Positions 55,258-63,277 of a stretch of 64,000 nt of DNA are shown in pieces. Numbering within the stretch: the stretch's first letter is position 1; each line of letters begins with the position of its first letter. The notes under the pieces are model-generated. The model saw only the letters and a list, made by a program, of their open reading frames with translations. It was not told the DNA's origin and made no database searches. Made by a program: the position numbers and the translations under genes. This DNA comes from Escherichia coli (GTDB lineage: Bacteria > Pseudomonadota > Gammaproteobacteria > Enterobacterales > Enterobacteriaceae). The stretch lies in the NCBI RefSeq assembly GCF_048403405.1, contig NZ_CP183129.1, one strand, 5' to 3'.

Positions 55258-55264
55258 TGTTTTG

Positions 55265-55302
55265 CACCTCATCCTGACAGGGGCCCCCCTCAGGATGAGG
55301 TG
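55265..55302. terminator. Bidirectional terminator hairpin between sapF and the efflux-island MFS gene
   Basis: Perfect 13-bp stem CACCTCATCCTGA / TCAGGATGAGGTG with a 12-nt G/C-rich loop; T-run follows on the plus strand. Confidence 0.7.
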
Positions 55303-55306
55303 TTCA

Positions 55307-56470
55307 TTACTTTTGATTGTCGATTCTGGTGAGAGCAACCAGCAATGCCAGCGTATAACACACCGTAATTGCCAGACTCATTTTTAACAGTGTTTCTCCG
55401 CCAATTCCCGACAATGGCGCGGCTATACCGCCGAAGACAAACATGCTCATCCCCATCAACGCAGACGCCGTTCCAGATTCCTGCGTCCCTACTGCACTCA
55501 TAGCCTCTGCCCCGCCAACAGTGCCGATGCCGCTACAAAATGCGATGGTGAAAAATAATGCCACCAGTGCCGGAATGGGCAATTGTATCCATGCGCATAA
55601 GACCGTGAGCAATGCACACAAAATTGCCGCTATCAGGCCACCTCGCAACAATGTCATCGCGTTAATCCGTCGCGCCAGGCGCGAGAAGATCCATGAAGCA
55701 ATGATAAGTCCGATGCCGTTAAGGCCAAACACCAGGCTAAATTGCATTGGATTAAAGCCAAATTCCTTCTGCAACACGAACGACGAAGAGCCGATATATG
55801 CAAACAAACCGGCCAGCATAAAACTTTGAATCAGGCAAAAGCGCATAAAACGGCGGTTCTGCACCACGCTTCGTCCGGTTAATAGCAATGATGAGCCCCT
55901 TTTATTTTCTGGCAAGGTCTCATTAATAAATAACAGGCAGCCCAGCAACAGTACGGTGCTAATTTCAGCCATTACCCAGAATAAAGTGCGCCAGTCAAAA
56001 GTGCTGACAATGTACCCGCCCAGCACTGGCGACAACACCGGTGCCAGGCCATTCACCGTCATTAACAGCGCAAAAAACTGGGTCAACGTTACTCCCTGAT
56101 ATTTGTCACGAGCAATAGAACGAGAGAGCACCGAACCACCCGCCCCCGCGATCCCTTGAATAAAACGCCAGACCACCAGCCAGTAAATATTGTTCGTTGT
56201 CGCGCACAAAATGGAAGAAACAATAAACAATAGCAACGACAAGATTAACGGACGTTTACGCCCTATTTTGTCGCTCAGAGGGCCAAATAACAGTTGTCCG
56301 ACGCCAAGACCGATCAGTGATGCAGTCAGCGTTAATTGCGTTATGGTCGTGGTTGCCGCCAGTTGCTCAGACATCTCCGGCAAAGCCGGCAAATAAAGAT
56401 CGGTACACATCGGGCCGATACCGGCTAAAAGACCAAGAATCAATGCCCATGAAAGAGAGACTCTAGCCAT
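55307..56470 (-). CDS. MFS transporter, DHA1 (Bcr/CflA-like) drug:H+ antiporter family
   Basis: 387-aa ORF with 12 predicted TM helices and the DHA1-type motif GPLSDKIGRKRPL after TM2; AGGA Shine-Dalgarno inside the 3' end of the upstream OMF gene. Confidence 0.8.
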   Translation of the reverse strand: MARVSLSWALILGLLAGIGPMCTDLYLPALPEMSEQLAATTTITQLTLTASLIGLGVGQLLFGPLSDKIGRKRPLILSLLLFIVSSILCATTNNIYWLVVWRFIQGIAGAGGSVLSRSIARDKYQGVTLTQFFALLMTVNGLAPVLSPVLGGYIVSTFDWRTLFWVMAEISTVLLLGCLLFINETLPENKRGSSLLLTGRSVVQNRRFMRFCLIQSFMLAGLFAYIGSSSFVLQKEFGFNPMQFSLVFGLNGIGLIIASWIFSRLARRINAMTLLRGGLIAAILCALLTVLCAWIQLPIPALVALFFTIAFCSGIGTVGGAEAMSAVGTQESGTASALMGMSMFVFGGIAAPLSGIGGETLLKMSLAITVCYTLALLVALTRIDNQK

Positions 56471-56478
56471 ATTATTCC

Positions 56479-57852
56479 TTACTTGAGTGATGACATGCCG
56501 CCGCCCAGCGACTGCCAGAGCGTGATTCGGTTTGTAAAATCAGTCAGTTGTAGTGCCAGCAGCGCCTGCTGTGCGCTCCACAAGCTGCGCTGCGCCGTCA
56601 ACACGGTCAGGTAATCACCAACACCCGCCTGATAGCGACGCAAGCCAACATCGACCGTTTGTTGCTCAGCTTTAACATACTGGCGCTGTGCATCCAGTTG
56701 CTCTTCAAGCGTGGTCCGCCGCGCCAGTGCGTTAGCGACATCTTTAAATGCGCTCTGAACGGTTTTTTCATAGGTGGCAATGAGTCCACGCTTTTGTGCT
56801 TCTGCGTAACGAAGCTGCGCCAGATTACTTCCGCCAGTGAACAGCGGTAATGTGACCGATGGCGTAAATGACCAGATCTGCATTCCGTGGCTGAACAACG
56901 ACGACAATGCTTCACTGCCAACACCAGCGCTGGCAGTCAGCGAAATCGTCGGAAAAAAGTTAGCCCGCGCCGCGCCAATATCGGCATTGGCGCTCTTCAA
57001 ATTATGTTCCGCTTCCTGGATATCCGGGCGACGCAGCAGAACGTCAGATGACACTCCCGCAGGAACCAGACTTATCATCTGTTCCGGCAGGCTTTCCAGT
57101 GTTCCCGGTAGCAAATTTTCCTCAAGCGTTGTACCTGCCAGTAAGTTCAGCGCATTTTTATCCTGCATCACTTGTGTCTGATAGCTGGCAACGCTGGCGC
57201 GCGCTTGCTGATAAACACTCATCGCCTCACTGACATCTGTCGCTGCCGCCGTGCCAACCTGTTGCTGGCGCTGGATAATTTTCAATGAGTTTTCTGCACT
57301 GGCCATCGTTTCTTTTGCCAGGGCCAGGTTGCTGTTATCAGCCGCCAGTGTCAGCCAGGCGGTGCTGATTTCAGCAATCAGCGTTAAACGAGTGTTCTGG
57401 GCTGTAAATTCACTGGCAAGCCAGGTTTCCCGCGCCGCCCGAGATAAACTCTGATTACGACCAAACAGATCTAACGTAAAACTGGACACCGTGCCGTCAG
57501 CCTCGGCAGTGGTTTCCGTACCATTCGCCAGCGAACGACTGCGGGTTGAACTTAAGGCCGCATTCACCGTCGGGAATAACGACGCATTAGTTTGCCCATA
57601 GAGCGCCCGTGCTGAGTCAATATCAGCAATCGCTTTTTGCACATCGCGGTTACTGTTCAGTGCAATAGTCACCACCTGCTGCAATCGGGGATCGTGGATC
57701 ACCTGCTGCCAGTCATGGCTGATTGCCTTTCCCTGGCCCTGTGCTCCCGGCAAGGTCGCCGGGATTGGGGATTCAGGCGTGCTGTAGTGGGGCTCGAGCG
57801 AGACACATCCCGCACTCAACAGCACCAGAAAAATAAGAGAACGACGCAACAT
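56479..57852 (-). CDS. Outer-membrane efflux lipoprotein, NodT/OprM family
   Basis: 457-aa ORF; lipoprotein signal with lipobox LLSAGC; two TolC-like repeat halves. Confidence 0.85.
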   Translation of the reverse strand: MLRRSLIFLVLLSAGCVSLEPHYSTPESPIPATLPGAQGQGKAISHDWQQVIHDPRLQQVVTIALNSNRDVQKAIADIDSARALYGQTNASLFPTVNAALSSTRSRSLANGTETTAEADGTVSSFTLDLFGRNQSLSRAARETWLASEFTAQNTRLTLIAEISTAWLTLAADNSNLALAKETMASAENSLKIIQRQQQVGTAAATDVSEAMSVYQQARASVASYQTQVMQDKNALNLLAGTTLEENLLPGTLESLPEQMISLVPAGVSSDVLLRRPDIQEAEHNLKSANADIGAARANFFPTISLTASAGVGSEALSSLFSHGMQIWSFTPSVTLPLFTGGSNLAQLRYAEAQKRGLIATYEKTVQSAFKDVANALARRTTLEEQLDAQRQYVKAEQQTVDVGLRRYQAGVGDYLTVLTAQRSLWSAQQALLALQLTDFTNRITLWQSLGGGMSSLK

Positions 57853-57855
57853 AAC

Positions 57856-62184: not shown

Positions 62185-62187
62185 AAT

Positions 62188-62212
62188 GAAATAAGGGGGA
62201 TTAATATCCCCC
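62188..62212 (-). terminator. Intrinsic terminator downstream of the TetR-family gene
   Basis: Minus strand reads GGGGGA-tattaa-TCCCCC followed by TTATTTCATT. Confidence 0.55.
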
Positions 62213-62232
62213 GCTATTGGTTAATTCTGTTC

Positions 62233-62799
62233 TTATTTATTTATCAACATACTAACAATATCCTGATATATTTCCTGCAGATGTTGTGGATCGCTTTTTT
62301 GCGGTGTTAAACGACGATAAACCGTACCTTCCATCATGGTAGCAAACACTTCAACGCAGCAACGAATGTGCTCGTCGCTAAGATGGGGATGCATTCTTTT
62401 CATATGTGCACAACCGTTAGCGAACATTCTGGCGTCAGCTTCTTCAAGCATTGCCATAACCCGCGGGTTGCGTGTGGCTTCTGCAGCCACTTCCAGCATC
62501 AGCGCGTCGTCGTCCTCATTTAAGGATTTACGCAAGGCAAGGACTTCCGGGAAGTGATCGGTACGCGCGTCAATGTCCATTTGGGCAATACGAAAGTCGA
62601 TGATACGGCGAACCATCTCTTCAATAATGGCGTCTTTGTTGGCGAAGTAACGATATATCTGACCCACGCTAAGCTGAGCTTCGCTGGCAATTTGCGACAT
62701 ACTGGCGGCATGAAACCCGCAGCGACGAAAACACCGACGGGCGGCGTTAATGATTTCATCCTGACGCTGTTTGTGGCGTATCTCCAGCTTGCTGGTCAT
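62233..62799 (-). CDS. TetR/AcrR-family transcriptional repressor
   Basis: ORF 62233..62898; start placed at MTSKLEIRHKQRQDEII (62799), preceded by AGGAGA, so that the TetR HTH (..SMSQIASEAQLSVGQIYRYFANKDAI..) lies at the usual N-terminal position (188 aa). Confidence 0.8.
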   Translation of the reverse strand: MTSKLEIRHKQRQDEIINAARRCFRRCGFHAASMSQIASEAQLSVGQIYRYFANKDAIIEEMVRRIIDFRIAQMDIDARTDHFPEVLALRKSLNEDDDALMLEVAAEATRNPRVMAMLEEADARMFANGCAHMKRMHPHLSDEHIRCCVEVFATMMEGTVYRRLTPQKSDPQHLQEIYQDIVSMLINK

Positions 62800-62821
62800 T
62801 TCTGTCTCCTGGCCTATCACT

Positions 62822-62867
62822 TGGTGAGAATGATCGTTCTCATTTTTGCTGATTATACGTTTCTCCA
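62822..62867 (-). promoter_or_regulatory. Candidate promoter and autoregulatory operator of the TetR-family gene
   Basis: Perfect -10 TATAAT on the minus strand (62867..62862) followed by inverted repeat TGAGAA-N6-TTCTCA (62822..62839) in the leader. Confidence 0.45.
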
Positions 62868-63277
62868 AAGTAATGGAAAGTATTTTTATCTTATTCATGG
62901 TGCATATTCTGATAATGAAGAGATTGTGGAGATTATGTGAAGATAGTTGACAATATTAAGTTGGGGTCAATTCATCAGAAAGGCTGCTACTTGTTGTCGC
63001 CAGTTCTGTTTTCATCATCAAACTTATCGGAGCTAATACGAATAGTTTCAGAGTCAGATTCTATAAGATATTCCCCCAACCTACCCCTTGCAGGCGTCAA
63101 GAGTAGATAACGCAAAATGCTCTGTACCGCAGCTTCTCTCCGGTACAGAAAGCGCAACTATAGCCACCCACAGCCAGGTTGATTATAATAACCGTTTATC
63201 TGTTCGTACTGTTTACTAAAACGACGAATCGCCTGATTTTCAGGCACAACAAGCATCAACAATAAGGATTAAAGCTA

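Follow-up and report, generated by a model that had tools for sequence, protein, structure and literature searches.

The five-gene cluster that fills the sapF-fabI interval in the window, a stretch of 64,000 nucleotides identical (100%) to the E. coli MS 69-1 chromosome, is the published E. coli eefRABCD operon. This operon encodes a seventh RND pump, is normally silent and is already known from two studies (Pugh et al., bioRxiv 2024 / Microb Genom 2026, PMC12817139; Shen et al., Virulence 2025, PMC12482432). With a probability of about 0.93, the cluster is repressed by EefR from a single promoter, encodes a tripartite RND pump together with an MFS exporter, and represents an old, vertically inherited chromosomal allele alternating with ycjD, not a mobile insertion. 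The first-pass annotation had presented the cluster as new unless it proved to be an already named system, and had itself listed the eef operon as one candidate. Since the cluster is that named operon, with a published operator and residue numbering, at a known conserved position between sapF and fabI (PMC12817139; PMC12482432), the novelty fails. As the rediscovery of a published operon, the finding has little weight as a discovery. The eef system is still of some interest, as the two experimental papers differ on drug transport. Three additions are made here, which concern mislabelled plasmid copies, the orthology of eef loci across genera and a structured leader between eefR and eefA.

The cluster shares its gene order, orientation, genomic site, protein lengths, operator and all quoted residues with the eefRABCD operons of E. 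coli ATCC 25922, SMS-3-5 and ATCC 35218, and differs from them only by strain-level polymorphism. MS 69-1 itself is discussed in neither paper (PMC12817139; PMC12482432). Record CP141085 has 98.4% identity to the eef segment of the window and, in turn, 99.5% to the cluster of ATCC 35218 (PMC12482432, Table S6); identities to the ATCC 25922 and K. aerogenes references are indirect or taken from the papers.

The five ORFs are intact, lie co-directionally on the minus strand and occupy the positions where the first-pass annotation had placed them. Its gene-by-gene assignments are likewise borne out by the NCBIfam subfamilies and by the RefSeq starts. The interval opens after the end of sapF at 55257 and closes at the start of fabI, on the plus strand, at about 63278. 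Within it, eefD occupies 55307-56470, eefC 56479-57852, eefB 57856-60963, eefA 60963-62084 and eefR 62233-62799, and the stop codon of eefA overlaps the start of eefB. The longest ORFs for eefA and eefR would reach 62117 and 62898, respectively; RefSeq, in annotating the identical genome, places the starts at 62084 and 62799 instead. The co-directional order of regulator, adaptor, RND permease, outer-membrane factor and MFS gene supports the earlier reading of the cluster as an operon. The genes have a host-like GC content of 0.49-0.55; lower values, 0.44-0.47, are confined to eefR and the region of its promoter. The genes sapF and eefD converge, and between them lies an inverted repeat, CACCTCATCCTGA...TCAGGATGAGGTG (55265-55302), which is probably the sapF terminator; the eefD stop is found 4 nt past it.

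Four of the five proteins (EefA, EefB, EefC and EefD) exceed the curated subfamily cut-offs of NCBIfam. EefD (387 aa) is a DHA1 exporter of the Bcr/CflA type in the MFS (TIGR00710, 280.8 bits against a cut-off of 200.9), and both papers use this name for it (PMC12817139; PMC12482432). EefC (457 aa) is an outer-membrane factor lipoprotein of the NodT/OprM type (TIGR01845, 373 against 210 bits), EefB (1035 aa) is an HAE-1 RND permease (TIGR00915, 1548.7 against 940 bits) and EefA (373 aa) is a periplasmic adaptor lipoprotein (TIGR01730, 273 against 95 bits). EefR (188 aa), a TetR-family repressor, matches no NCBIfam equivalog, the TetR N-terminal domain being its sole match. The best solved-structure matches of EefB are AcrB and MexB. 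Its scores stay below the NCBIfam equivalog cut-offs for AcrB (1374.9 against 2150), AcrD (1404.2 against 1854) and OqxB (840.5 against 2200), in agreement with the earlier statement that the permease is not AcrB; EefA does not reach the equivalog cut-offs for MexA or AcrA.

The residue landmarks of the published proteins are all in place. In EefB, the proton-relay residues D408, D409, K935 and T972 are found at the published positions (PMC12817139). EefA has the lipobox LLLSGC and carries R120, R123, L124, V125, S131, D134 and D136 at the published numbering, while EefC begins with MLRRSLIFLVLLSAGC and carries D206, G412, L415, T416, L418 and T419. The lipoboxes of these two proteins read LSGC and SAGC, respectively. 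An RND permease with the D-D, K and T relay is accompanied by a lipoprotein adaptor and a lipoprotein outer-membrane factor, the set of parts that defines an HAE-1 tripartite pump. At the two EefR positions where resistant clones are mutated, the protein of the window has V45 and R50 (PMC12482432), and eefR contains the published sgRNA target CCAGTATGTCGCAAATTGCCAGC.

Upstream of eefR, on the minus strand, lies a sigma-70 promoter, PeefR (62852-62879), with the -35 element TTTCCA at 62874-62879, a 16-nt spacer and the -10 element TATAAT at 62852-62857, matching the consensus at 10 of 12 positions. The EefR operator, TGAGAACGATCATTCTCA (62825-62842, minus strand), starts 9 nt after the -10 element and is an exact match to the 18-bp palindrome validated by EMSA in PMC12482432, with 0 mismatches where 0.03 such matches would be expected by chance. 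The same 18-mer, or a variant at its two central positions only, also occurs in Enterobacter, Kluyvera, Klebsiella, Raoultella and others. The -35 element and ACGTATAAT are kept in most of the aligned eefR upstream regions; those of Phytobacter and Kosakonia do not have them.

With this arrangement, the single sigma-70 promoter upstream of eefR would drive all five genes, and a dimer of the TetR-family protein EefR would bind the 18-bp palindrome that closely follows the -10 element. EefR would in this way repress its own gene as well as the pump genes, leaving the system almost silent in laboratory conditions. Loss or release of EefR would allow two exporters to be produced: a tripartite proton-driven pump, in which the EefA adaptor lipoprotein joins the EefB RND permease to the OprM-type channel EefC, and the inner-membrane MFS protein EefD. 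Together, the two exporters are predicted to expel amphiphilic compounds. Repression, co-transcription and efflux activity have been shown experimentally in the near-identical strains ATCC 35218 and ATCC 25922 (PMC12817139; PMC12482432), and we infer from sequence identity that they extend to MS 69-1. Deletion of eefR raises eefA-D mRNA 27- to 83-fold, and RT-PCR products span every junction between the eef genes (PMC12482432). The single-transcript model may nevertheless be incomplete, given a terminator-like hairpin between eefR and eefA.

This hairpin belongs to the 148-nt eefR-eefA spacer (62085-62232, minus strand) which, as judged from its sequence, is a conserved three-hairpin RNA leader supported by covariation. 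The leader is described neither by Pugh et al. (PMC12817139) nor by Shen et al. (PMC12482432) and is an addition of the present analysis. The three hairpins, HP1 (62195-62212), HP2 (62165-62188) and HP3 (62111-62132), recur in 24 distinct spacers. HP1 is followed by a T-run, which gives the terminator-like match, while HP3 is followed by the conserved TTCACCCTGGAGAAAA, a Shine-Dalgarno region placed directly before the eefA ATG. The spacer folds with a minimum free energy of -46.6 kcal/mol (z = -4.2), and a covariance model matches the leader in 34 loci. When RNAalifold was applied to the raw MAFFT alignment, HP2 alone was recovered; HP1 and HP3 required realignment to the covariance model. 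Double changes are found at 24 of the 27 pairs and 77% of cells are paired, and even though such realignment biases pair counts toward the model, the control in which the partners are slid, with 44-52% paired, remains clearly separated. Rfam gave no match in the eef region, either at the gathering threshold over the whole window or at E up to 1 over 62000-63300. A leader peptide was considered as well: an AUG in HP2 opens an ORF of 6-8 codons in E. coli and Enterobacter. This candidate was rejected, since the frame is not conserved and the ORF is missing from E. cloacae pAVS0889-b and several Kluyvera species. The leader could act as a second layer of control. A cis-regulatory role, in which a leaky or conditional terminator and a structured 5' UTR gate pump expression apart from EefR, possibly by sensing a natural signal, is a tentative and rather doubtful proposal. 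If true, it would explain why the leader is kept in Klebsiella species from which eefR has been lost, as well as the cryptic state of the operon.

The same chromosomal interval exists in two forms. In K-12 it holds only ycjD, as the first-pass annotation had stated. The arms of the sapF hairpin are conserved in K-12 and its loop is different, so the allele-specific DNA begins only past the hairpin, at about 55303. From there an eef segment of about 7.8 kb (55303-63126) replaces the ycjD segment of about 0.6 kb in K-12; homology with K-12 stops at the hairpin and resumes at 63127. A blastn search of the K-12 sapF-fabI spacer for eef remnants (word size 7, E up to 10) returned, besides the sapF hairpin arms, chance-level matches of 11-21 nt only. 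A simple deletion scar was therefore rejected as the K-12 allele, which instead represents replacement by unrelated DNA, read here as ycjD and a BoxC-like repeat; the 'conserved operon fragments' in Fig. 3 of Pugh et al. (PMC12817139) are regarded here as unconfirmed. Among 5426 complete E. coli genomes, the eef allele, counted at 95% identity or more, occurs in 2037 (about 38%), and the ycjD allele occurs in 3377. Since the two alleles jointly make up 5414 of the 5426, they are almost mutually exclusive. The operon occurs only in phylogroups B2, D, E, F and G, is as conserved as acrAB-tolC and has a nucleotide identity of 97-100% across phylogroups (PMC12817139).

A recently acquired, horizontally mobile resistance module, plasmid-borne in some strains and ready to spread, would be another account of the cluster. 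Five 'plasmid' records of E. coli with the operon are named by Shen et al. (PMC12482432), Pugh et al. suggest lateral acquisition from its similarity to the Mex pumps of Pseudomonas (PMC12817139), and of 5429 places matched in the complete E. coli genomes, 7 lie on records labelled plasmid and 5422 on records labelled chromosome. Among the cited records in PLSDB, however, one is 4.9 Mb long, and two others (385 kb and 252 kb) have the chromosomal gene order ymjA-sapABCDF-eef-fabI-yciW-rnb, no replicon type and a non-mobilizable classification. By their size and gene order, the cited plasmid copies are chromosomal DNA mislabelled as plasmid, and it is such records that underlie the claim in the literature that plasmids carry the operon, with the risk of rapid spread that would follow. 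Nor does the locus itself look mobile: no tRNA genes, transposase, integrase, flanking direct or inverted repeats or deviant composition were found at it, and E. albertii and E. whittamii also carry eef between fabI and sapF. These observations uphold the earlier view of an old chromosomal accessory module and make a recent mobile acquisition very improbable. Even less credence is given to a decaying, non-functional remnant heading for the loss that is seen in phylogroups A, B1 and C. Such decay would fit the silence of the operon in laboratory conditions and the small effect of its deletion (PMC12817139; PMC12482432), its degradation by insertion sequences in S. dysenteriae (PMC12817139), the IS2 inside eef in one E. 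coli genome and the loss of eefR in Klebsiella species. Against it, all five ORFs are intact here with their catalytic residues in place, the promoter, operator and leader are kept across genera, identity across phylogroups is high, and the cloned genes are active (PMC12817139; PMC12482432).

A further alternative accepts the same operon and differs about its purpose: its true role may be to export a host-derived or endogenous compound for colonisation or virulence, antibiotic efflux being a side effect of forced overexpression. We regard this as a serious possibility, at somewhat less than even odds. The K. pneumoniae eef locus is said to have been tied to gut colonisation and acid tolerance by Coudeyras et al. 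in 2008, which counts in favour of such a role. In ATCC 25922, deletions of eefB, eefABC or eefD leave the tested MICs essentially unchanged, with shifts of at most 2- to 4-fold, and the conservation and phylogroup limits of the operon point the same way (PMC12817139), as does an EefR that has no characterised close relative. On the other hand, derepression by eefR mutation does yield multidrug resistance in an acrB-null strain (PMC12482432). The two papers themselves diverge here. EefABC and/or EefD expressed from pBR322 raised MICs 4- to 32-fold in an acrB deletion strain of DH5alpha, and Shen et al. obtained multidrug resistance with a constitutive promoter (PMC12482432), whereas Pugh et al., with pET vectors in MG1655, found effects on ethidium and rhodamine only, ethidium accumulation being reduced by EefABC (PMC12817139). 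This disagreement on antibiotic transport by EefABC may reflect expression level. A non-drug role is a matter of physiology, compatible with the identification of the cluster as eefRABCD.

Outside E. coli, the closest known systems are the eef operons of Klebsiella (Enterobacter) aerogenes, K. pneumoniae and Enterobacter species, for which EefABC was first described. EefB is 86-93% identical across at least 20 enterobacterial species, compared with about 57% to AcrB (the latter value from PMC12817139). The E. cloacae proteins are 79% (EefA), 88% (EefB), 77% (EefC) and 68% (EefR) identical to those of the window, and its 18-bp operator is the same. For K. pneumoniae ATCC 13883 the values are 79% (EefA) and 87% (EefB), and for E. 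aerogenes 78%, 87% and 75% identity to E. coli EefA, EefB and EefC have been given (PMC12482432). To judge from these protein comparisons, the eef loci of Enterobacter, Klebsiella and Kluyvera are orthologous to E. coli eef. From a blastn identity of 73%, Pugh et al. concluded that the operon of Enterobacter is 'not homologous' (PMC12817139), a statement that is contradicted by the 88% identity of EefB, the protein comparisons and the identical operator. The Klebsiella and Enterobacter operons also share with E. coli the promoter layout and the structured eefR-eefA leader. They differ in their genomic site, the sapF and fabI flanks being seen in Escherichia only. Enterobacter eef has no eefD, the operons of K. 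pneumoniae and the K. oxytoca group have lost the eefR ORF but kept the promoter and operator, and that of K. aerogenes is reported to be silenced by H-NS. MexAB-OprM and AcrAB-TolC have the same tripartite HAE-1 RND architecture, with the same proton relay and a lipoprotein adaptor; identity to their counterparts is about 57% for EefB and 50-54% for EefA (PMC12817139). Unlike acrAB, the eef operon has its own OprM-type outer-membrane factor, and it is distinguished from both systems by a co-directional TetR gene that stands first in the operon and by an additional MFS gene.

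The five minus-strand genes between sapF, which ends at 55257, and fabI, which starts at about 63278 on the plus strand, are eefD (55307-56470, 387 aa), eefC (56479-57852, 457 aa), eefB (57856-60963, 1035 aa), eefA (60963-62084) and eefR (62233-62799, 188 aa). The six-frame ORF list places them exactly where the first-pass annotation had put them. The longest possible ORFs of eefA and eefR reach 62117 and 62898, respectively, and the starts used in that annotation are those of the RefSeq annotation of an identical genome. The spacing is operon-like, with eefA and eefB overlapping and the next two gaps being 3 nt and 8 nt. 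The GC content is 0.49-0.55 across the genes and 0.44-0.47 across eefR and the promoter region. Four of the five proteins score above the cut-offs of curated NCBIfam subfamilies: the RND permease EefB (TIGR00915, 1548.7 bits, cut-off 940), the adaptor EefA (TIGR01730, 273 bits, cut-off 95), the NodT-type outer-membrane factor EefC (TIGR01845, 373 bits, cut-off 210) and the Bcr/CflA MFS exporter EefD (TIGR00710, 281 bits, cut-off 201). In NCBIfam the eefR product has a TetR-type N-terminal domain only. These assignments bear out the original gene annotation, including its view that the RND protein is distinct from AcrB, since EefB falls below the NCBIfam equivalog cut-offs of AcrB, AcrD and OqxB. 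The lipoboxes LSGC and SAGC suggest that EefA and EefC are lipoproteins, and EefB probably uses the canonical proton relay. A 215-aa minus-strand ORF at 63256-63903 is antisense to fabI and has no family match. The sole gathering-threshold Rfam match in the window is the McaS/IsrA small RNA (RF00115, 112.8 bits) at 1992-2087 on the plus strand.

The novelty implied for this cluster does not hold; it matches eefRABCD of two published studies, and the name eef had itself been suggested in the first-pass annotation. Pugh et al. (bioRxiv 2024; Microb Genom 2026, PMC12817139) named the operon, modelled its proteins, and mapped it to the sapF-fabI interval in phylogroups B2, D, E, F and G, with ycjD occupying its position in phylogroups A, B1 and C. 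Shen et al. (Virulence 2025, PMC12482432) showed that EefR represses the operon and defined the operator by EMSA. Over 8.5 kb, the region matches the chromosome of E. coli MS 69-1, isolated from human colon, at 100% identity. An exact copy of the published operator TGAGAACGATCATTCTCA occupies minus-strand positions 62825-62842 (0.03 matches expected by chance), 9 nt downstream of the promoter TTTCCA-16 nt-TATAAT. EefR has V45 and R50, the residues changed in published resistant mutants, and the published sgRNA target is found in the window. Residues D408, D409, K935 and T972 of EefB, D206, G412, L415, T416, L418 and T419 of EefC, and R120, R123, L124, V125, S131, D134, D136 and Q221 of EefA all match the published numbering. 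Since operator, EefR residues, sgRNA target and pump residues all match, the cluster is the named operon itself, beyond mere resemblance. The operon, its location, distribution, repressor, operator and efflux activity are already published.

Shen et al. (PMC12482432) found that PeefR, the sigma-70 promoter upstream of eefR, is functional and repressed by EefR, with single-base changes in the palindrome abolishing binding, and that RT-PCR products span all gene junctions. Deletion of eefR raises eefA-D mRNA 27- to 83-fold and, in an acrB-null strain, raises MICs 4- to 16-fold for sanguinarine, erythromycin, clindamycin, fusidic acid, chloramphenicol and dequalinium. From cloned genes, the increases are 8- to 32-fold for eefABC and 2- to 4-fold for eefD. 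In acrB-null strains, either derepression or overexpression leads to multidrug resistance (PMC12482432). EefABC also reduces ethidium accumulation, and eefD deletion slows ethidium efflux (PMC12817139). These experiments on repression, co-transcription, MICs and efflux come from strains nearly identical to MS 69-1, which would, from its sequence, have the same circuit of EefR, PeefR and pump. The two studies disagree about antibiotic transport (PMC12817139 vs PMC12482432). Pugh et al. used pET vectors in MG1655 (PMC12817139), whereas Shen et al. relied on pBR322 with a constitutive promoter (PMC12482432), and we suspect that the disagreement arises from differing expression levels.

The eef region is present at full length and at least 95% identity in 2037 of 5426 complete E. 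coli genomes, and the K-12-specific segment in 3377 at a coverage of at least 80%. Since these sum to 5414 of the 5426, the eef and ycjD segments are alternative alleles, almost mutually exclusive, at a single locus. As the first-pass annotation stated, ycjD is the only gene in the K-12 interval. Homology to K-12 extends through the sapF stop and the 38-nt hairpin at 55265-55302, and returns at 63127, 150 nt upstream of fabI. The hairpin arms are common to both alleles and the loop differs (GGGGCCCCCC in the window, AAAGATTAAATCT in K-12), so the allele boundary lies within the hairpin or just past it. The allele-specific segment is about 7.8 kb in the window versus about 0.6 kb in K-12, and no similarity is detectable between the two. 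Besides ycjD, the K-12 segment includes, at its end and right on the breakpoint, a G-rich repeat, CCCCTCGCCCCTCTGGGGAGAGGGTTAGGGTGAGGGG (2340-2398 of the K-12 locus, versus window 63070-63126), which we read as BoxC-like; it is dispersed in E. coli genomes, at a median of 4 places per genome. In one E. coli genome, 14EC033 (NZ_CP024147.1), an IS2 is inserted within the cluster.

Five E. coli records are given as "plasmid" by Shen et al. (PMC12482432), who infer spread by plasmids. PLSDB contains three of these. CP134663 is 4.9 Mb long, and CP141085 (385 kb) and CP054253 (252 kb), which lack a replicon type and are rated non-mobilizable, carry ymjA-sapABCDF-eefDCBAR-fabI-yciW-rnb in chromosomal order. 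All three are chromosomal DNA mislabelled as plasmid. The first-pass description of the cluster as an old chromosomal accessory module is supported: eef occupies the same position relative to fabI in E. albertii and E. whittamii, in the latter also relative to sapF, and no tRNA gene, transposase, integrase or border repeat was found at the locus.

What remains of interest is the natural function of the operon and a structured leader not previously described. The 148-nt eefR-eefA spacer (62085-62232, minus strand) contains three hairpins. HP1 (62195-62212), 20 nt past the eefR stop, is GC-rich, followed by a T-run, and matched in a terminator scan; HP2 lies at 62165-62188, and HP3 at 62111-62132 is followed by the conserved TTCACCCTGGAGAAAA and the eefA ATG. 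For the E. coli spacer, the folding energy is -46.6 kcal/mol (z = -4.2 versus shuffles). In other species, 24 distinct spacers, each folded singly, adopt the same three hairpins with different stem sequences, and the hairpins are kept, with compensatory changes, in no fewer than 12 genera of enterobacteria. A covariance model of the three stems recovers the element from 34 loci, among them Klebsiella loci without eefR. In its alignment, 24 of 27 pairs have changes on both sides, and standard pairs fill 77% of cells versus 44-52% with partners slid, a fraction inflated by fitting the alignment to the model. The covariation score is 0.369 versus at most 0.175 with partners slid, a control that preserves relatedness and is still clearly separated, and none of 500 shuffles matches it. 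The leader has no Rfam match, and neither Pugh et al. nor Shen et al. mention a terminator or hairpin at this spacer. HP1 may act as a leaky intrinsic terminator, reducing the transcription that passes from eefR into the pump genes, with HP2 and HP3 forming a structured 5' leader, possibly an attenuator that responds to a ligand or a condition. The candidate AUG of a leader peptide is not conserved, which makes such a peptide unlikely. That the leader is a genuine second regulatory layer we consider rather doubtful.

An operator scan with one genome per species detects the eef locus in Escherichia, Enterobacter, Kluyvera, Klebsiella, Raoultella, Kosakonia, Lelliottia, Leclercia, Pseudocitrobacter, Phytobacter, Citrobacter and Dryocola, with EefB 86-93% identical. 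The sapF and fabI flanks were observed in Escherichia only, many scanned loci being short and their context often cut off. In Acidovorax (L052) and Pokkaliibacter (L121), the 18-bp palindrome recurs in the gap between an RND adaptor gene and a divergent TetR gene encoding a protein with 30-35% identity to EefR; therefore, this operator type reaches beyond Enterobacteriaceae, in a different gene layout. The operator pattern also adjoins an SDR/FabI-like gene (28% identity) in Paenibacillus (L033, L071, L092) and turns up in many actinobacterial loci, repeatedly in Nocardiopsis, Microbacterium and Streptomyces, by a rough estimate at several times chance frequency.

Variants of the locus occur among these genera. 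In K. pneumoniae, the K. oxytoca group and Raoultella terrigena, the PeefR promoter, operator and hairpin leader are retained but the eefR ORF has been lost, and the operator sits about 200 nt upstream of eefA (3580-3880 of L097, K. pneumoniae ATCC 13883; other eefR-less loci are L072, L075, L107, L116, L117 and L123). In Kluyvera genomosp. 3 (L046, 709-2577) and K. georgiana (L104, 230-2083), eefR is followed directly by eefD across a different 148-nt spacer, with eefABC missing between them, which suggests that EefR-EefD is able to act as a stand-alone module. Enterobacter, unlike E. coli, has eefRABC without eefD. Pugh et al. (PMC12817139) called the Enterobacter operon "not homologous", given 73% blastn identity. 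However, the E. cloacae and E. coli proteins are 68% (EefR), 79% (EefA), 88% (EefB) and 77% (EefC) identical, and the 18-bp operator is identical in the two species, which runs against that statement.
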